From contig JAWMAR010000531.1 of assembly GCA_036785375.1 (NCBI GenBank), positions 1,116,001 through 1,180,000 of the forward strand: a stretch of 64,000 nucleotides of DNA, given 5' to 3'. This document shows, one piece after another, positions 5,023 through 48,805 of this stretch (its first letter is position 1; every line of letters begins with the position of its first letter). The stretch is from Leucoraja ocellata (lineage: Eukaryota). The notes below the pieces were generated by a model that ran no database searches, was not told the origin of the DNA, and saw nothing but the letters and a program-made list of their open reading frames with translations. Both the position numbers and the translations under genes were made by a program.

Positions 5023-5147
5023 GTGAGTATTTACTTCAACCGACATGATATTTAATCTCGAGTACGATTAAACCTTTCTATCTGTGACAATTTTGCTGTT
5101 TCTCTGATATTAGTTAATATTCTACTTTTTTCTGGTTTGTTTTCCAG

Positions 5148-5492
5148 ATATAAATGCGGAATTTGCACTAAATCAGCCGTCTTCAAAATCCACATCTCTG
5201 GGACAGAACGTGGAAATAGCCTGTACCCTGTCTGGCGGCAGTTTAAGTACTAGCACCGTTTACTGGTACCAGCAGATTCCAGCAACTGTTCCGCGGTTTC
5301 TGTTCTACACTTCGTCGGGCGGCAGCATTAATAGAGGCTCGGGAGTTTCTGACCGTTTCTCCGGATCAGTGTCAGGCAACACTATAACATTGACAATATC
5401 GAACGTGCAGTCGGGGGACGCTGCTGACTACTACTGTGCTGTGTGGAAAAGTGCTATAATCTTCGGCAAAGGAACGAGGCTGGGTATTGGCA
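5148..5492 (+). CDS. Ig light chain cluster 1, germline-joined VJ exon
   Basis: Acceptor TTTCCAG|AT. Encodes (Y)INA-EFALNQP...IAC...WYQQ...DAADYYC-AVWKSAII-FGKGTRLGIG, then donor A|GTAAGT. V and J (FGxG) are contiguous in frame with no RSS. Confidence 0.95.
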
Positions 5493-5521
5493 GTAAGTAA
5501 AATACCTTCTATCTTTGCGTA

Positions 5522-5997: not shown

Positions 5998-6669
5998 ATC
6001 AGTTTTGTTCCGTATGACATCATATAACTCATTTTGCTGTTGTGCCATTAAGCGAAAGGAATAAGATTCGCTATTCAACCAGAATTCTGAGCTGAATTAT
6101 GACTTCAAAGAGAAGAGACTGATCGAGAAAAAACAAACATATCGGTTTCAGCATTAATGTAAATCATATCAACGACTATTTAAAATGCGAGAAAACGGTA
6201 AATTTAACGAGGCTGCAACTCTAGTCTGTTCATTGATGGTTAAAACGACAACATATTCTTGTCGCTAAAATCCAACCAATAGGAACATTTCGGTATCTGG
6301 TCTTAACAAATGAACAGATGAATTAAGGGAAGGTATTTAAACAAAACTAAAGTTTTAAGCGCGTTTAGTGGAACTTTGGCAGCAATGAAAACCCGCAACT
6401 GGCTGTCGGGTAAAACAGTTGGGTTTTTTTAATTGTAGCTGGGGTCAACGAAAATAATACTCTGGAGATCAATTAAAAACACTGCCGAAATAATATATTT
6501 TACGCTGCTGCGCATATTCTGTCCCATTGCCATAAATAGCAGTTATTGTTTGGAGATCTCACTTGGAACGAATGAATCCATGTTATACCAACTGGATTTT
6601 TAACAAAGATAATGTTTTAACCGAAGCAGTTCTGCCAGCCCTACTAATCTGTGACTTTATTTTAAATAG

Positions 6670-6992
6670 ATCCTCAGCCCCCCGCGGTGTCCGTGCTTGG
6701 ACCTTCAGCGCAAGAATTGACGGGAAAGGGAACGGCCACCCTGGTGTGTTTGGTGAACGGGTTTAATCCGGGCGCAGTGGAAATTGACTGGACCGTGGAC
6801 GGCAGTGCGAGGAGTGATGGCGTTGAGACCAGCCGGATCCAACAGGAGGCGGACAACACGTTCAGTGCGAGCAGTTACCTGACTCTGCCAGCCACAGTGT
6901 GGAACGCACACGATCTTTACTCCTGTGTGGTTAAACACGAGTCGCTGGCAAGCCCGCTGCAGGGAAACATCGCCAGGTCCAGCTGTCTGTAA
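6670..6992 (+). CDS. Ig light chain cluster 1, C exon (lambda family, cartilaginous-fish type II-like)
   Basis: Acceptor AAATAG|AT, phase 1. NPQPPAVSVLGPS...ATLVCLV...W...SSYLTL...YSCVVKH...RSSCL*: C1-set domain with penultimate interchain Cys. Confidence 0.95.
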
Positions 6993-10077: not shown

Positions 10078-10850
10078 TCAACTTCCTTTCCCATTCCCCC
10101 ACTGACCTTTCTGTCCTGGGCCTCCTCCACTGTCAGAGTGAGGCCCAGTGTAAAGTGGAGGAACAGCACCTGCTTGGGCAGATTACAACCAGGAAATCAA
10201 TGAATATTGATTTCTCTAACTTTTCAAGTAACCCTTGCATCACCGCTCTCCCTGGCCCTCCCCCATGCTAGTCATCGTACCAGTTTCACTGTCGTCCCGG
10301 TGAGTTTCATTGAATGCATGGTAGACAACAATGCTGGAGAAACTCCGCGGGTGAGGGAGCGTCGATGGAGCGAAGGAATGGGTGACTATTCAGGTCGAGA
10401 CCCTTCTTCAGACAAAGAAATTGAATGCATAACTCGTTATCACCTTGCCCACCGCGAACAATGCAGCTCCACCTTTCCTTGATCATCGTTACTTTTTTTT
10501 GCATATCTTTCATTCATTTGTTCTATATGCACCTCTGTATCACCGTCTATATCTCTCGTTTCACTTTACCTGGCTCAGTCTGAGGAATGGTCTCGACCCG
10601 AAGTGTGACCTATTCCTTTTCTCCGGAGATGCTGCCTGACCTGCTGAGTTACTCCGGCCTTTTGTGTCTATCTTAGGTTTAAAGCAGCATCTGCAGTTCC
10701 TCCCAACACAAACATTGAACCACTGTGGTCGAGTTTTACTAGGGGGAGTCTTGACTCTTGACTGGGGTGTGAGCTGCCAAGCGAAATATGAGGTGCTGTT
10801 CCTCCAATTTGCGCTGGGCCTCACTCTGACAATGGATGAGGCCCAGGCCC
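10078..10850. mobile_element. Penelope-like element 3' fragments (+ 10078-10705; inverted copy ~10760-10850); equivalents near 22700 and 38435
   Basis: Degenerate DLSVLGLLHCQSEA..KVEEQHL..LG GIY-YIG C-terminal-like coding, followed by a terminal repeat with GGGTCTCGACCCGAA. Confidence 0.6.
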
Positions 10851-11145
10851 ACTTACCTGGCAGGGGAACGACCGTGATCAAAAAGGCAGTTCTGCCTGGA
10901 AGAGTCTATCCCATTCGATCCAATTTGAGATACCAGCTACTAAGACTGATGTGTTCAGCATTCTTCCCCTGCACAATTAAAGCATGGAATAGTCTTCACC
11001 CTACATAGATACCCAACCAGACGCAACTACATTTAAGGTAGCTCTTCTTCTCCAAGGGCCCATTTTTGCTTAAGTCCACCCTCCGCCACCTCCAGTTTAA
11101 ATTCCATTTGGAATATTTTGGAGAACCAAGAACCAAGAAGAAGAA
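10851..11145 (+). pseudogene. U1 snRNA 5' fragment (10851-10915) fused to a LINE 3' end
   Basis: ACTTACCTGGCAGGGGA..ACCGTGATCA..AAGG..GTT matches the U1 5' end and stem-loop I. Downstream encodes ..FFPCTIKAWNSL.. (LINE ORF2 end) and an (AACCAAG)2(AAG)n tail. Confidence 0.75.
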
Positions 11146-17999: not shown

Positions 18000-18108
18000 G
18001 TGAGTATTTACTTCAACCGACATGATATTTAATCTCGAATCTCTGTGACAATTTTGCTGTTTCTCTGATATTAGTTAATATTCTACTTTTATCCGGTTTG
18101 TTTTCCAG

Positions 18109-18453
18109 ATATAAATGCGGAATTTGCACTAAATCAGCCGTCTTCAAAATCCACATCTCTGGGACAGAACGTGGAAATAGCCTGTACCCTGTCTGGCGGC
18201 AGTTTAAGTACTAGCACCGTTTCCTGGTACCAGCAGATTCCAGCAACTGTTCCGCGGCTTCTGTTCTACACTTGGTCGGGCGGCAGCATTAATAGAGGCT
18301 CGGGAGTTTCTGACCGTTTCTCCGGATCAGTGTCAGGCAACACTATAACATTGACAATATCGAACGTGCAGTCGGGGGACGCTGCTGACTACTACTGTGC
18401 TGTGTGGAAAGATGCTGTAATCTTCGGCAAAGGAACGAGGCTGGGTATTGGCA
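18109..18453 (+). CDS. Ig light chain cluster 2, germline-joined VJ exon
   Basis: Same structure as cluster 1; CDR3 AVWKDAVI then FGKG; AG/GT splice sites intact. Confidence 0.95.
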
Positions 18454-19841
18454 GTAAGTAAAATACCTTCTATCTTTGCGTAGACACAAAAAGCTGGAGT
18501 AACGCAGCGAGACAGGCAGCATCTCTGGAGAGAGGGAAAGGGTTGTAGGAAGGAACTGTAGATGCTGGTTTAAACCGAAGATAGACACAAGCTGGAATGA
18601 CAGCATCTCTGTAGGGGATGAATGCGTCTGCAGCTCCTTCCTGCATATTCTGTCTTTGGGTTAATGATATAGCAGTGAAAAGTAATTGGTTTTCTGTCGC
18701 TAATCGATGGTTCAAATGAAAAGCTTTTAACGCTAATATGTTCAGCGTTCGACTAAAGCCGAGTTTCCTTTGCAAAATTATTAGACGTAGCTCTATCAAA
18801 GGGCCCAGATGTTAGAACGGCTGTTTGTATTTTTTACACAAAATATCTTCAAATAAAAGGTATTTAAAGATGATATTTTTTAAGTTCCCGGCCACGATCG
18901 AGTCTATTTTGGCAAATTAGTTGACAACAGCAAAGAAAGGATGAAATGGCTGTCCGGTTGTGTTATTATTCTTAACTACTTTGCGGACGGCGAGCTAATA
19001 ATTAAGAATTAGACCGAGAGTAAGGAAACGGGAAATAACTTTGGAGGGACAAGGAACTGCAGATGCTGGTTTACAAAAAAAGACACAAAGCTCTGGGGTG
19101 ACTCAGCGGGTATGGCAGCGTCTCTGTGAACATGGATAGGTGACTTTCGGTTCGGGTCCCTTCTTCAAATCAGTTTTGTTCCATGCGACATCATATAACG
19201 CATTTTGTTGTTGTGCCTTTAAGCGAAAGGAATAATATTCGCTATTCAACTTCAGAAATCTGAGCTGAATTATGACTTCAAAGAGAAGAGACTGATCGAG
19301 AAAAAACAAACGTATCGGTTTCAGCATTAATGTAAATCATATCAACGACTATTTAAAATGCGAGAAAACGGTAAATTTAACGTGGCTGCAAATCTAGTCT
19401 GTTCATTGATGGTTAAAACGACAAAATATTCTTGTCGCTAAAATCCAACCATTAGGAACATTTCGGTATCTGGTCTTAACAAATGAACAAATGAATTAAG
19501 GGAAGGTATTTAAACAAAACTAAAGTTTTAAGCGCGTTTAATGGAACTTTGGCAGCAATGAAAACCCGCAACTGGCTGTCGGGTAAAACGCTGGGGTTTT
19601 TTTATTGTAGCTGGAGCCAACGAAAATAATACTCTGGAGATCAATTAAAAATACTGCCGAAACAATATACTTTACGCTGCTGCGCATATTCTGTCCCATT
19701 GCCATAAATAGCAGTTATTGTTTAGAGATCTCACTTGGAACGAATGAATCCATGTTATACCAACTGTATTTTTATCAAAGATAATGTTTTAACCGAAGCA
19801 GTTCTGCCAGCCCTACTAATCTGTGACTTTATTTTAAATAG

Positions 19842-21732: not shown

Positions 21733-23858
21733 TAAAGTAGCATCATGACTCGCCTGCCCTTATCCTGAATGCCCTGCTCAATGAAGCAAAACATAAAATA
21801 TGCATTCTCACCACTCTATATAGTAGTGTTGCCACTGAGGGACATATAGACTTGGATCCCAAAATTCCTCTGTACATCAATAGTGTTGTTATTAATCGAA
21901 AGTAGATACAAAATGCTGGAGTAAGTCAGCGGTTCAGGCAGCGTCTCGTATATTTCTCTTTACAATCGATCCCTCCCCCAACACTTCAATGCTCTGGTTA
22001 ATCTGAATCTATCATTTCATCTCTCATTTTTATACCTATCCTGCTGTTTACTTTGACAGCCTTCCTCACTGTCCGCAACCCAAACAATCTAGCTGTCATC
22101 TGTAAACGTATTAACTACTAGAGAAGGTGCAGATATCTTTGTCTGTTGTGTCTCTCAATAATCTGTCCATTCATGCACACTGCCCCTGAAGACACCCAAC
22201 ACCTACTTCTTAATCACACAGCGCCCTTGCATATGAATATTCGCCACATTGATCTCACTCTCCTCCTTGGTGAAAATAGATACAACGCATTCAATTAATA
22301 TCTCGCCTATATCCCTTGACTCAAAGCACAAATTCCTCCCTTTATCCTCATGTTACCATCTTTCTGGTTACCCTCTTGCATTTCAATTAGGTACATAAAC
22401 CTTGCGAACTTCTTTAATCTAGCTCGACAAACCCGTTCCATGCCCCCTTTTGGCTCTTCTAATCGACCGCTTAAGTTATTTCCAACTCGACTTCATATTT
22501 CTCCCTGATTTCATCTTCAGATAATGGGCTGGGTCATCAGGATTGAAAAGAAAAGTATTCTTGGCTGGATGCGATTATAATGTTTTGGATACTTTACTCC
22601 ATATGCTTGCCGATACTCAAACAGATTGATATCGAAAGAACTTTAAGCGATTCAAGGGAGTTGGGAAAAGGGCGTGACACTGGAATTTGTTTAAACGTTC
22701 AACTTCCTTTCCCATTCCCCCACTGACCTTTCTGGCCTGGGCCTCCTCCACTGTCAGAGTGAGGCCCAGTGTAAAGTGGAGGAACAGCACCTGCTTGGGC
22801 AGATTACAACCAGGAAATCAATGAATATTGATTTCTCTAACTTTTCAAGTAACCCTCTCCCCCATGCTGGTCATCGTACCAGTTTCACTGTCGTCCCGGT
22901 GAGTTTCATTCAATGCATAGTAGACAACAATGCTGGAGAAACTCCGCGTGTGTGGCAACGTCGATGGAGCGAAGGAATGGGTGATTATTTGGGTCGAGAC
23001 CCTTCTTCAGACAAAGAAATTGAATGCATAACTCGTTATCACCTTGCCCACCGCCAACAATGCAGCTCCACCTTTCCTTGATCATCGTTACTTTTTTTTG
23101 CATATCTTTCATTCATTTGTTCTATATGCACCTCTGTATCACCCTCTATATCTCTCATTTCACTTTACCTGGCTCAGTCTGAGGAAGGGTCTCGATCCGA
23201 AGTGTGACCTATTCCTTTTCTCCGGAGATGCTGCCTGACCTGCTGAGTTACTCCGACCTTTTGTGTCTATCTTAGGTTTAAAGCAGCATCTGCAGTTCCT
23301 CCTAACACAAACATTAAACCACTGTGGTCGAGTTTTACTATAAAGGGGAAATCTTTCAGGACTGTGATAAGAAAAACATTTTTTACACAGAGAGTGGTGA
23401 ATCTCTGGAATTCTCTGCCACAGAATGTAGTTGAGGCCAGTTCATTGGCTATATATAAGAAGGAGTTAGATGTGGCCCTTGTGGCTAAAAGGATCAGGGG
23501 GTATGGAGAGAAGGCAGGTACAGGATACTGAGTTGGATGGTCAGCCATGATCATATTGAATGGCGGTGCAGGCTCGAAGGGCCGATTGGCCTACTCCTGC
23601 ACCTATTTTCTATGTTTCTATGTTTCTATGTAAAGTTGTGGTGCCTGACCCGCTGAGTTACTCCGGCCTGTTGTTCCTATCTTAGGATTAAACAGCATCT
23701 GCAGTTCCTCCCAACACAAATATTGAACCAATGTGGTCGAGTTTTAGTAGGGGGAGTCTTGACTCTTGACTGGGGTGTGAGCTGCCAAACGAAATATGAG
23801 GTGCTGTTCCTCCAATTTGCACTGGGCCACACTCTGACAATGGATGAGGCCCAGGCCC

Positions 23859-32360: not shown

Positions 32361-32485
32361 GTGAGTATTTACTTCAACCGACATGATATTTAATCTCGAG
32401 TACGATTAAACCTTTCTATCCGTGATAATTCTACTGTTTATCTGATATCAGTTAACATTCTACTTTTATCTGGTTTGTTTTCCAG

Positions 32486-32830
32486 ATATAAATGCGCAAT
32501 TTGCACTAAATCAGCCGTCTTCAAAATCCACATCTCTGGGACAGAACGTGGAAATAGCCTGTACCCTGTCTGGCGGCAGTTTAGGTAACAGTGACGTTTC
32601 CTGGTACCAGCAGATTCCCGGAGCGGTCCCGCGATATTTGTTCTACTATTACTCGGGCAGCAGCATTTACAGAGGCTCGGGAGTTTCTGAACGTTTCTCC
32701 GGATCAGTGTCAGGCAACACTGCAACATTGACAATATCGAACGTGCAGTCTAGGGACGCTGCTGACTACTACTGTGCTGTGTGGAAAGATGCTTTCATCT
32801 TCGGCAAAGGAACGAGGCTGGGTATTGGCA
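32486..32830 (+). CDS. Ig light chain cluster 3, germline-joined VJ exon
   Basis: QFALNQP...C...WYQQ...YYC-AVWKDAFI-FGKG; splice sites intact. Confidence 0.95.
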
Positions 32831-34206
32831 GTAAGTAAAATACCTTCTATCTTTGCGTAGACACAAAAAGCTGGAGTAACGCAGCGAGACAGGCAACATC
32901 TATGGAGAGAAGGAAAGGGGTTTAGGAAGGAACGGCAGATGTTGGTTTAAAACGAAGATAAGGACAACAAGCTGGACAGGCAGCATCTCTGCAGGAAATG
33001 AATGGGTCTGCAGTTCCTTCCTGCATATTTTGTCTTTGAATTAATGATATAGCAGTGAAAACTAATTGGTTTTCTGTCGCTAATCGATGGTTCAAAGGAA
33101 AAGCTTTTAACGCTAATATGTTCAGCGTTCGACTAAAGTCGAGATTCCTTTGGCAAATTATTAGACGTAGCTCTATCAAAGGGCCCAGATGTTAGAACGG
33201 CTGTTTGTATTTTTTACACTAAATAACTTTAAATAAAAGCTGATTATTTTTTTTTAATTCCCCGCCACGAATGCGTCTTTTTTGGCAAATTAGTTGAGAA
33301 CAGCAATGAAAGGACGAAATGGCTGTCCGTTTGTGTTATTATTCTTAATTACTTTGCGGACAACGAGCTAATAATTAAGAATTAGACCGAGAGTAAGGGA
33401 ACGGGAAATAACTTTGGGGGGGACAAGGAACTGCAGATGCTGGTTTACAAAAAAAGACACAAAGCTCTGGGGTGACTCAGCTGGTAGGGCAGCATCTCTG
33501 GTGAACATGGATAGGTGACTTTCGGTTCGGGTCCCTTCTTCAAATCAGTTTTGTTCCATGCGACATCATATAACGCATTTTGCTGTTGTGCGAAAGGAAT
33601 AATATTCGCTATTCAACCTCGGAAATCTGAGCTGAATTATTACTTCAAAGAGAAGAGACTGGTCGAGAAAAAACAAACATATACGTTTCAGCATTAATGT
33701 AAATCATATCAACGACTATTTAAAATGCGAGAAACGATAAATTTAACGTGGCTGCAACTCTAGTCTGTTCATTGATGGCGAAAACGGCAAAATATTCGTG
33801 TCGCTAAAATCCAACCATTAGGAATATTTCGGTAACTGGTCTTAATAAATGAACAGATGAATTAAGGGAAGGTATTTAAACAAAACTAAAGTTTTAAGCG
33901 CGTTTAGTGGAACTTTGGCTGCAATGAAAACCCGCAACTGGCTGTCGGGTAAAACGCTGTTTTTTTTTATTGTAGCTGGAGCCAACGAAAATAATACTCT
34001 GGAGATCAATTAAAAATACTGCCGAAACAATATACTTTACGCTGCTGCGCATATTCTGTCCCATTGCCATAAATAGCAGTTATTGTTTGGAGATCTCACT
34101 TGGAACGAATGAATCCATGTTATACCAACTGTATTTTTAACAAAGATAATGTTTTAACCGAAGCAGTTCTGCCAGCCCTACTAATCTGTGACTTTATTTT
34201 AAATAG

Positions 34207-37437: not shown

Positions 37438-39459
37438 TAAAGTAGCATCATGACTCGCCTGCCCTTATCCTGAATGCCCTGCTCAATGAAGCAAAACATA
37501 AAATATGCCTTCTCACCACTCTATATAGTAGTGTTGCCACTGAGGGACATATAGACCTGGATCCCAAAATTCCTCTGTACATCAATAGTGTTGTTATTAA
37601 TCGAAAGTAGATACAAAATGCTGGAGTAAGTCAGCGCGTCAGGCAGCGTCTCGTATATTTCCCCTCACAATCAACCCCTCCCCCAGCAGTTCAATGCTCT
37701 GGTTAATCTGCATCTATCATTTCATCTCTCATTTTTATACCTATCCTGCTGTTTACTTTGACAGCCTTCCTCACTGTCCGCAACCCAAACAATCTAGCTG
37801 TCATCTGTAAACGTATTAACTACTAGAGAAGGTGCAGAGATCTTTGTCATGGCTCCTGCAATCTCGTCTGTTGTGTCTCTCAATAATCTGTCCATTCATG
37901 CACACTGCCCCTCAAGACACCCAACACCTACTTCTTAAACACACAGTTACCTTGCGTATGAATATTCGCCACATTGATCTCACTCTCCTTCTTGTCCTTC
38001 TCCTTGGTGAAAAGACATACAACGCATACATTTAATATCTCGCCTATATCCCTTGACTCAAAGCACAAATTCCTCCCTTTATCCTCAAGTTACCATCTTT
38101 CTGGTTACCCTCTTGCATTTAAAACAGGTACATAAACCTTGCGAACTTCTTTAATCTAGCTCGACAAACCCGTTTCATGCCCCCTTTTGGCTCTTCTAAT
38201 CGACCGCTTAAGTTATTTCCAACTCGATTTCATATTTCTGCCTGATTTCATCTTCAGATAATGGGCTGGGTCATCAGGACTGAAAAGAAAAGTATTCTTG
38301 GCTGGATGCGATTATAATGTTTTGGATACTTTACTCAATATGCTTGCCGATACTCAAACAGATTGACATCGAAAGAACTTTAAGCGATTCAAGGGAGTTG
38401 GGAAAAGGGCGGGACACTGGAGTTTGTTTAAACGTTCAACTTCCTTTCCCATTCCCCCACTGACCTTTCTGTCCTGGGCCTCCTCCACTGTCAGAGTGAG
38501 GTCCAGTGTAAAGTGGAGGAACAGCACCTGCTTGGGCAGATTACAACCAGGAATTCTCTAACCTTTCAAGTAACCCTTGCATCACCTCTCTCCCCGGCCC
38601 TCCCCCATGCTAGTCCGTCCGTTTCCTTGATCATCGTTACTTTTTTTAGCATATCTTTCATTCATTTGTTCTATATGCACCTCTGTATCACCGTCTATAT
38701 CTCTCGTTTCACTTTACCTGGCTCAGTCTGAGGAAGGGTCTCGACCCGAAGTGTGACCTATTCCTTTTCTCCGGTGACATTCTAATCTGTTTTGCTACTG
38801 TGAAGATCCAGACCAATACTTATTCAAACAAATATTAAACCTTGTAACTTACAAAATTCTTAAGAAGTTGGACAGGCTAGATGCAGGAAGATTGTTCCCG
38901 ATGATGGGGAAGTCCAGAACAAGGGGTCACAGTTTAAGGATAAAGGGGAAATCTTTCAGGACTGTGATAAGAAAAACATTTTTTACACAGAGAGTGGTGA
39001 ATCTCTGGAATTCTCTGCCACAGAATGTAGTTGCGGCCAGTTCATTGGCTATATTTAAGAAGGAGTTAGATGTGGCCCTTGTGGCTAAAGGGATCAGTGG
39101 GTATGGAGAGAAGGCAGGTACAGGATACTGAGTTGGATGGTCAGCCATGATCATATTGAATGGCGGTGCAGGCTCGAAGGGCCGATTGGCCTACTCCTGC
39201 ACCTATTTTCTATGTTTCTATGTTCTTATGTAAAGTTGTGGTGCCTGACCCGTTGAGTTATTCCGGCCTTTTGTGCCTATCTTAGGTTTAAAGCAGCATC
39301 TGCAGTTCCTCCCAACACAAATATTGAACCAATGTGGTCGAGTTTTACAAGGGGGAGTCTTGACTCTTGACTGGGGTGTGAGCTGCCAAGCGAAATATGA
39401 GGTGCTGTTCCTCCAATTTGCACTGGGCCGCACTCTGACAATGGATGAGGCCCAGGCCC

Positions 39460-39755
39460 ACTTACCTGGCAGGGGAACGACCATGAGCAAAAAGGCAGTT
39501 CTGCCTGGATGAGTCTTTCCCATTGGATCCAATTTGAGATACCAGCTACCAAGACCGATGTGTTCAGCATTCTTCCCCTGCACAATTAAAGCATGGAATA
39601 GTCTTCACCCTACCATAGTTACCCAACCAGACGCAACTACATTTAAGGTAGCTCTTCTTCTCCAAGGGCCCTTTTTTGCTTAAGTCCACCCTCCGCCACC
39701 TCCAGTTTAAATTCCATTTGGAATATTTTGGAGAACCAAGAACCAAGAAGAAGAA
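39460..39755 (+). pseudogene. U1-LINE chimera, third copy
   Basis: Same sequence and flanks; has ACCATG as in canonical vertebrate U1. Confidence 0.75.
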
Positions 39756-47727: not shown

Positions 47728-47852
47728 GTGAGTATTTACTTCAACCGACATGATATTTAATCTCGAGTACGATTAAACCTTTTTATCCGTGATAATTCTA
47801 CTGTTTATCTGATATTAGTTAATATTCTACTTTTATCTGGTTTGTTTTCCAG

Positions 47853-48197
47853 ATATAAATGCGCAATTTGCACTAAATCAGCCGTCTTCAAAATCCACAT
47901 CTCTGGGACAGAATGTGGAAATAGCCTGTACCATGTCTGGCGGCAGTTTAGGTAGCAGTGTTCTTGCCTGGTACCAGCAGATTCCAGGAACGGTCCCGCG
48001 ATATTTGTTCTACTATTACTCGGGCAGCAGCATTAATAGAGGCTCGGGAGTTTCTGAACGTTTCTCCGGATCAGTGTCAGGCAACACTGCAACATTGACA
48101 ATATCGAGCGTGCAGTCGGGAGACGCTGCTGACTACTACTGTGCTGTGTGGAAAGATGCTGTAATCTTCGGCAAAGGAACGAGGTTGGGTATTGGCA
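47853..48197 (+). CDS. Ig light chain cluster 4, germline-joined VJ exon
   Basis: QFALNQP...C...WYQQ...YYC-AVWKDAVI-FGKG; splice sites intact. Confidence 0.95.
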
Positions 48198-48805
48198 GTA
48201 AGTAAACTACCTTCTATCTTTGCGTAGACACGAAAAGCTGGAGTAACGCAGCGACAGAGGCAGCATCTCTGGAGAGAAGGAAAGGGTTTTAGGAAGGAAC
48301 GGCAGATGTTGGTTTAAAACGAAGATAGGCACAACAAGCTGAACAGGCAGCATCTCTGTAGGGTATGAATGGGTCTGCAGTTCCTTCCTGCATAGTCGGT
48401 CTTTGGGTTAATGATATATAACAGTGAAAAGTAATTGGTTTTCTGTCGCTAATCGAAGGTTCCACGGAAAAGCTTTTAACGCTATTATCTATGTTCAGCG
48501 TTCGACTAAAGTCGAGTTTCCTTTGGCAAATTATTAGACGTAGCTCTATCAAAGGGCTTGATGCTATGACTGCTGTTTGTATTTTTTACACTAAATAGCT
48601 AAAATAAAAGGTATTTAAAGCCGCTATGTTTTAAATTTTCGGCCACGATCGAGTCTTTTTTGACAAATTAGTTGACAACAGCAATGAAAGGACGAAACGG
48701 CTGTCCAGATGTTTTTGTTTATTCTTAATTACTTTGCTGACGGCAAGTTGACAATTATCAAACCTGGATAAGAATTAGACAAGAGTAAGGTAACGGTAAA
48801 TAACT

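Follow-up and report, generated by a model that had tools for sequence, protein, structure and literature searches.

SINEU elements, whose 5' region derives from U1 or U2 snRNA, are described only from crocodilians in the account of Kojima (2015; PMC4494074). The promoter of U1 is external, and that account leaves open how elements without an internal promoter are transcribed, suggesting a part for upstream flanks. Extensions of 31-42 nt in SINEU-2A and SINEU-2B are read there as a sign of upstream transcription. The families so presented have poly-A tails, Tx1 partners, 137-7,700 copies, and no LINE with the same 3' end. An SVA subfamily with a MAST2 promoter, reported through the same account, is likewise a LINE-mobilized composite in which an upstream-transcribed source copy carried its 5' flank along. 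Chimeras of U6 with L1, L2, and RTE (PMC4476161) also join an snRNA 5' part to a LINE 3' part, in non-L1 clades too, and are described there as separate events. In the available parts of PMC7245038 and PMC5786205, snRNA heads are mentioned only through citation of the crocodilian paper. A literature survey at listing level returned no report of a family like the one below in cartilaginous fish.

The window, which is the whole 64,000 nt stretch of Leucoraja ocellata DNA that was analysed, carries immunoglobulin light-chain clusters in a tandem array; in each, the VJ exons are pre-joined and a C exon follows. Such clusters are a mark of cartilaginous fish. VJ exons lie at 5114-5500, 18075-18461, 32446-32838, and 47819-48205, and C exons near 6669, 19841, 34206, and 49630; the clusters vary chiefly around CDR1 and CDR2. 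A U1-LINE element lies between clusters, 3' of the C exon, and is present in three of the four spacers. It starts at 10080 rather than at 10851, as about 770 nt upstream of U1 belong to the mobile unit. At full length this unit is about 1.1 kb and consists of a Penelope remnant, nt 3-67 of U1, and a LINE tail. The features are as follows.

5114-5500, + strand: pre-joined VJ exon of an immunoglobulin light-chain cluster (context, outside the element)
About 6669-6992, + strand: C exon of the same light-chain cluster (context, outside the element)
10080..10709, + strand: extension part 1, a Penelope-like 3' remnant (end of the GIY-YIG ORF and terminal-repeat sequence, with an inverted piece inside)
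10580..10609, + strand: candidate degenerate minimal hammerhead-like motif in the Penelope repeat, layout as in PMC4209133
10710..10759, no strand assigned: 50-nt linker found only in the family, by pattern matches
10760..10847, - strand: extension part 2, an inverted piece of the Penelope GIY-YIG ORF (tblastn E 2e-8)
10851..10915, + strand: nt 3-67 of a U1 snRNA variant (the end that pairs with the 5' splice site, stem-loop I, and the start of stem-loop II)
10912..10915, + strand: CATT overlap, U1 nt 64-67 and LINE alike; the junction
10912..11123, + strand: 3' end of a CR1-group-like LINE (ORF2 terminus, 3' UTR, and a stem-loop at about 11089-11123)
11124..11145, + strand: LINE tandem-repeat tail, (AACCAAG)2(AAG)2AA
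22701..24150, + strand: array copy 2, U1 part from 23859, extension split near 23330-23640 by a later repeat insertion
38438..39755, + strand: array copy 3, U1 part from 39460, extension split near 38775-39240 by a later repeat insertion

The initial annotation had taken the copies at 10851, 23859, and 39460 for one insertion multiplied by the array, and the three do have both flanks in common; together with two copies on contig C384 they are counted here as one insertion. Single insertions, this one included, were later multiplied by DNA duplication, here along with the light-chain array. Exaptation of the element as a splice donor, conceivable in that the U1 5' end, when reverse-complemented, gives a donor consensus, is unsupported; the genes of the window are on the + strand and end upstream.

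The 65-nt U1-like string stands at 10851-10915 just as first annotated. It is identical to nt 3-67 of the main U1 of this genome at 55 of 65 positions, ungapped, and to the U1-variant copies of the genome at 55-57 of 65, so the likeness is not due to chance. The Rfam U1 covariance model, proposed earlier as a check, bears this out in part: searched against the window at the gathering score, Rfam returned no family, U1 included, but on a 601-nt stretch the U1 model gives a partial match of 22.1 bits (E=0.0018), with a gathering score of 69.5 and with 156.8 bits for the main U1 genes of the genome. Stem I had also been said to pair still (GGAAC/GTTCT). That pairing does form in RNAfold, but its register is shifted, and in the Rfam alignment several of the canonical pairs of stem I are shown as disrupted. 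The head has a compensatory pair, G26 and C39, that also occurs in U1 copies of the genome (L072, L120, and L148, for example); the donor was therefore a U1 variant of the skate's own genome, and a source in a foreign organism is rejected. The U1 variants of the genome (L053-L072) differ chiefly in stem-loop I, with compensatory stems, and some have promoter-like upstream sequence of their own. Among the U1 loci fetched there was no intact gene with the exact stem-loop I of the donor, L135 and L136 being close but bearing an insertion.

What the head lacks is as consistent as what it has. A functional U1 gene has 164 nt, an Sm site, an upstream promoter, and a 3' box, and the head comprises nt 3-67 only. 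U1 nt 1-2 occur in none of the family's copies, three extra C's standing in for them where extension and U1 join, and the upstream sequence of U1 genes, hence the U1 promoter, is absent from all copies. The U1 piece is likely a passenger, not a promoter. Changes private to the family, at nt 21, 46, 49, and 57, are found in 18-20 of the 20 ungapped heads tallied among 30 loci examined. A stop at the methylated cap, conceivable as a cause of the missing nt 1-2, is weakened by other U1 retrocopies and Tx1 heads, which retain these two nucleotides. Insertion of a U1-targeting LINE into a U1 gene is rejected as well, there being no chimeric locus with the rest of U1 after it or a U1 promoter before it.

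The similarity to U1 ends in an overlap with the LINE that could have served as junction microhomology, as first supposed, although it comprises the four letters CATT and not CCATT: in 13 LINE copies compared across this point, the preceding letter is G in 11 and C in one, and one has a change in CAT itself. A few bases upstream of the junction, both U1 and the LINE read GACGAGG. The ORF2 terminus and repeat tail reported after the head are both where they were placed; in the window copy the terminus is in two frames, joined over a 5-nt deletion that belongs to the younger subfamily. The LINE part of the chimera is the last ~230 nt of an abundant LINE. A 26-nt tail pattern has 3593 exact matches in the genome, and the LINE's own sequence across the junction has 1869 (at most one mismatch). 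All 40 tails sampled, 20 from the head of the list for each of two contigs, are plain 5'-truncated LINE copies, which puts chimeras at about 1% of tails.

The tail thus led to a partner LINE, as had been suggested, one with thousands of copies. Its long copies have an RT domain and a weak match to an endonuclease (APE), the domains likewise found in CR1-group LINEs of cartilaginous fish (bioRxiv 10.64898/2026.01.13.699120), and it shares 33% identity over 669 aa with a canonical CR1-like ORF in the window. By these sequence comparisons the partner is classed as CR1-group-like and not as canonical CR1; Crack or Daphne is possible. Both, along with Zenon, are reported to occur in elasmobranchs in the same preprint, which gives Zenon a poly-A tail, whereas the partner LINE has a repeat tail. 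Our protein homologue search with the partner yielded no usable clade name. Its best matches (P0001-P0007) are 64-73% identical and unnamed, and the named ones, at about 43%, come from a bivalve or else from symbiont bins.

The initial annotation had left two readings, a template-switch chimera or a U1-headed SINE family, with a genome-wide comparison of junctions and flanks as the means of separating a family from a one-off event. A search with the 295-nt core as query gave 40 scored matches, 34 of them with head sequence, and pattern searches added seven loci, for a total of 41 loci with a head, which is a lower bound. Left out of the counts were L217 (a non-member), L218-L220 (repeat fetches), and L043, L044, L237, L238, and L254 (cut at or below the junction and so impossible to assign). 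Clustering of 38 records by 3' flank made 22 groups, with unrelated 3' flanks in 21 of the 22; two tail-less insertions bring the number of independent insertions to 24. The junction is at the identical place in all copies that bear it, with one copy showing a deletion across it. One and the same junction thus recurs at 24 independent sites whose 3' flanks differ, as in a family and not in a one-off chimera. A template-switch origin fits as well. A U1-headed SINE is nonetheless unsupported, because U1 is internal in 19 of 24 insertions, nt 1-2 are missing, there are only about 41 loci, and the CR1-group-like tail is unlike that of SINEU.

Because one junction and the private head changes are shared among copies, the chimera arose once and then spread. 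Among 20 independent copies the mean tail distance is 5.4%. In a tree of 62 tails, 35 chimeric tails and the LINE copy L046 form one branch (support 94/85) inside a single LINE sub-lineage; there is no clean chimeric clade in this tree, since the chimeric label needs two changes, with one change sufficing in 0% of bootstrap trees, and monophyly is therefore not shown by the tail alone. A G at a diagnostic 3' UTR site has 27 matches, comprising 23 chimeric loci, the LINE copy L046, and three too short to assign. The 5-nt deletion near the ORF2 terminus separates two subfamilies, and changes at U1 nt 20 and at -17 are linked to it (negative positions being upstream of the U1 part). Extension, head, and tail thus vary together: the 12 of 12 scored copies with intact CAATT or G20 differ from the deletion group in step at -17 and nt 20, with few exceptions. 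The diagnostic sites nest imperfectly (L132 against L009). Of the 24 insertions, 14 are present in near-identical pairs or in arrays, with tail distances of 0-3.8% in ten such pairs; these may be haplotypes or DNA duplications.

Upstream of U1, 19 of the 24 insertions carry the extension, variably truncated at its 5' end to lengths from 43 to ~820 nt; the longest reach about -760, -806, and -820. Since 3' flanks differ between insertions, the extension is cargo and not target. Upstream sequence that is shared, with ragged 5' ends and a fixed 3' end, is the pattern of 5' transduction. Part 1, common to the independent insertions L006 and L022, matches the end of a GIY-YIG ORF (tblastn E 5e-13), and the extension as a whole fits a Penelope-like element as PMC4209133 presents it. 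The inverted piece in part 2 comes from the same ORF whose 3' end opens the extension, and alignment to ordinary Penelope copies departs after 10847. Between the two parts, the linker pattern (at most three mismatches) has 17 matches, all 17 upstream of the U1-LINE junction and one of them across a later insertion. The 3' half of part 2, about 10811-10849, is predicted to form a strong hairpin, at -24.5 kcal/mol in the sister copy L006. In L022/L027 and L049/L050 the 3' arm of this hairpin, near -40, is locally inverted, and the hairpin is still predicted in L022. Neither a founder locus nor an empty site was found in this genome. The truncated member L125 (G000:C64:4227487) lies inside another inverted Penelope piece, close to where its own extension would align, a hint that 5' attachment may be guided by homology. 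It is the only copy in which the rest of the inverted Penelope piece follows the chimera, as would be expected of a founder, but it has the younger deletion and another copy upstream.

The two ends of the insertions behave differently. At the 3' side they end within the tail repeat, in variable repeat number. At the 5' side, setting aside L012 (interrupted) and L125 (the one insertion of 24 with an ambiguous start), and with ends adjusted by eye by a few nt, six of 22 fall in the 8-nt window from -43 to -50, with members of either subfamily among them. Modelled as exponential, such clustering has a p value of 0.0004 with the fitted mean, 0.01 with a mean of 150, and 0.04 with a mean of 100. 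These ends lie directly 5' of the -24.5 kcal/mol hairpin, which is in the top 2% of windows. Ten of the 40 LINE tails begin just 5' of the tail stem-loop, in a sample that could not hold shorter copies. Four further 5' ends are at -241 to -255 and two at -105, with no strong hairpin there (20th-85th percentile); the latter belong to independent insertions in different subfamilies (L106/L107 and L019/L020) and are identical. A hairpin can thus explain the -43 to -50 cluster, but hairpins do not account for 5' ends in general, as neither the -105 pair nor the ends at -241 to -255 fit. Target-site duplications are short or absent. End matches of 4-5 nt are seen in 8 of 21 insertions; among 420 shuffled pairs, 60 match by at least 4 nt, and the excess over chance is weak.

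Our preferred reading, which we regard as probable, is of a small family of non-autonomous retroposons, a composite of ~1.1 kb that arose through a single template switch and was spread by a LINE enzyme acting on RNA started upstream. The LINE reverse transcriptase, some 230 nt into its own RNA, would have jumped at CATT to the RNA of a U1 variant, and the U1-LINE product would then have ended up behind a Penelope remnant. Read-through from a promoter located at -820 or farther upstream, a step to which the shared extension points, would have yielded an RNA with extension, U1, and tail together. The LINE protein would presumably have used the stem-loop and repeat of the tail for priming, and the resulting pattern, 24 or more insertions in which 3' ends are fixed and 5' ends ragged, from at least two successive source copies, is what the genome contains. 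A promoter or transcription start site for the composite was not found.

The Penelope part might instead have been joined when the founding event itself included two template switches, from LINE to U1 and on to a Penelope-containing RNA, with source copies later expressed within host transcripts of their landing sites. We judge this unlikely. It would account for the lack of a founder with continuing Penelope flank, for the three extra C's in place of U1 nt 1-2 at the join, and for the two longest copies ending close together, at about -806 to -820; however, the extension is nested and rearranged, has its private linker, and so looks like a genomic locus, and no copy has sequence from a second, different upstream flank.

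A true U1-headed SINE of the SINEU kind, with the 295-nt core as the unit and the Penelope flank as a preferred target, is largely refuted here and very improbable. A target should resume on the 3' side, and the unrelated 3' flanks show no such continuation, even though SINEU families are reported to favour another transposon as target (PMC4494074). The extension, with its private linker, is moreover 5'-truncated just as the element is. The core is short, and four of 24 insertions do begin at or inside U1 (at -2, +3, +4/+7, and +37), but none of the copies has nt 1-2 or upstream promoter sequence of U1, and L015 begins with the CC of the composite.

Mobility driven by the Penelope part, its repeat promoter or hammerhead defining the RNA and a Penelope enzyme copying the unit, is hardly credible. 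Every 3' end is at the LINE tail. The extension does contain repeat sequence and a hammerhead-like motif, and two independent 5' ends (-241 and -242) are 3-4 nt 3' of the predicted cut; against this, six insertions run into or through the motif, four of the six, including the window copy, without the GAAA core, and minimal hammerhead motifs are described as cleaving weakly, as dimers (PMC4209133). Hammerhead cleavage as a source of 5' ends is accordingly unsupported. Just as improbable, and refuted for the 24 sites unless longer alignment shows homologous flanks, are independent template switches, for which a tail in thousands of LINE copies and the U6 chimeras formed with several LINE clades (PMC4476161) provide the conditions but which the one junction, private head changes, shared extension, and near-private tail variant exclude, and DNA duplication with no source element, which fits the 14 paired or arrayed insertions (by duplication or haplotype retention) but not ragged 5' ends with tail-bounded 3' ends.

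On the preferred reading of an upstream-transcribed composite, the family works like the extended SINEU-2 copies. It shares with SINEU a non-autonomous nature and the absence of an internal promoter, has a U1-derived piece in its 5' part, though one that is internal in 19 of 24 insertions, and shares with SINEU-2A and SINEU-2B a 5' extension from a transposon flank, there read as transcription upstream of a master copy (PMC4494074). Descent from master elements is apparent here too, in one junction, private changes, and two subfamilies. The family nevertheless falls outside SINEU in tail, partner, size, and position of U1. Its tandem-repeat tail is identical to that of an identified CR1-group-like LINE, where SINEU has poly-A; its 3' flanks are unrelated, where SINEU is Tx1-mobilized with target preference; its core has 295 nt and its longest insertions about 1.1 kb, where SINEU is under 500 bp; and its U1 piece, nt 3-67 without nt 1-2, is internal in most insertions, behind an extension of up to ~820 nt. 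As in SINEs generally, the 3' tail is shared with a partner LINE, although no internal Pol III promoter in a tRNA, 5S, or 7SL head was found, Rfam giving no such match. As in the U6 chimeras (PMC4476161), a single insertion holds an snRNA 5' part and a 5'-truncated LINE; unlike such retrocopies, where every copy would be a separate event joined at a point of its own, one chimera was recopied at least 24 times, with the same junction wherever it is kept, and the snRNA is a U1 variant cut at its 3' side. From the SVA subfamily as reported via PMC4494074 it differs in parts, host, and LINE clade.

A different LINE family of this genome has mosaic snRNA heads, in which the U1 variant seen in the composite runs to about nt 56 and then gives way to a U2-like piece. 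The loci are L221-L228 (for example G000:C114:1216729, C594:432574, C237:2838442, and C185:3040221), L134, L137-L140, and L143-L147; L225 is U1-U2-U2-like and L228 is U2-U1-U2-like, and the eight copies fetched differ in flanks and in head layout. We take this LINE to be Tx1-like from the motifs at its ORF2 end. It parallels the U1 and U2 heads of crocodilian Tx1 and SINEU, and by that analogy may be a stronger counterpart of SINEU than the composite family.

RNA depth over the U1 part had means of 0, 2, and 1 in three raw-read runs (1-6% read), and was 0 in an RNA contig run (X15). At least half of the sampled words are contained in runs of four organisms, one of which may be the source of the assembly, and all four runs examined show depth over the U1 part. 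A contig from organism D spans both junctions (10826-10929, two differences) and one from organism C spans the U1-LINE junction, each with fewer than 31 letters on the short side and so short of a full bridge.

The reach of the finding is limited, with about 41 loci and no sign of present expression. The family is young (about 5% pairwise tail divergence) and small enough to be traced copy by copy, and its partner LINE is identified. The borrowed flank is visible directly in 19 of 24 insertions, which bears on the transcription question that the SINEU account leaves open (PMC4494074). The family forms a link between one-off snRNA-LINE chimeras and SINEU-like families, and offers a compact example, open to tracing, of a route by which repeats derived from U1 could spread although promoter-less. 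It may be a SINEU in the making outside crocodilians, a one-off chimera that propagates itself through transcription from a Penelope flank and is cut back, guided by the hairpin, to a ~340-nt form (six independent times) or to a U1-first form; we entertain this seriously while leaning somewhat against it. If it holds, then together with the mosaic heads of the Tx1-like LINE it would mean that snRNA-headed retroposons arise repeatedly in vertebrates, through more than one LINE clade and with no need of a promoter of their own.
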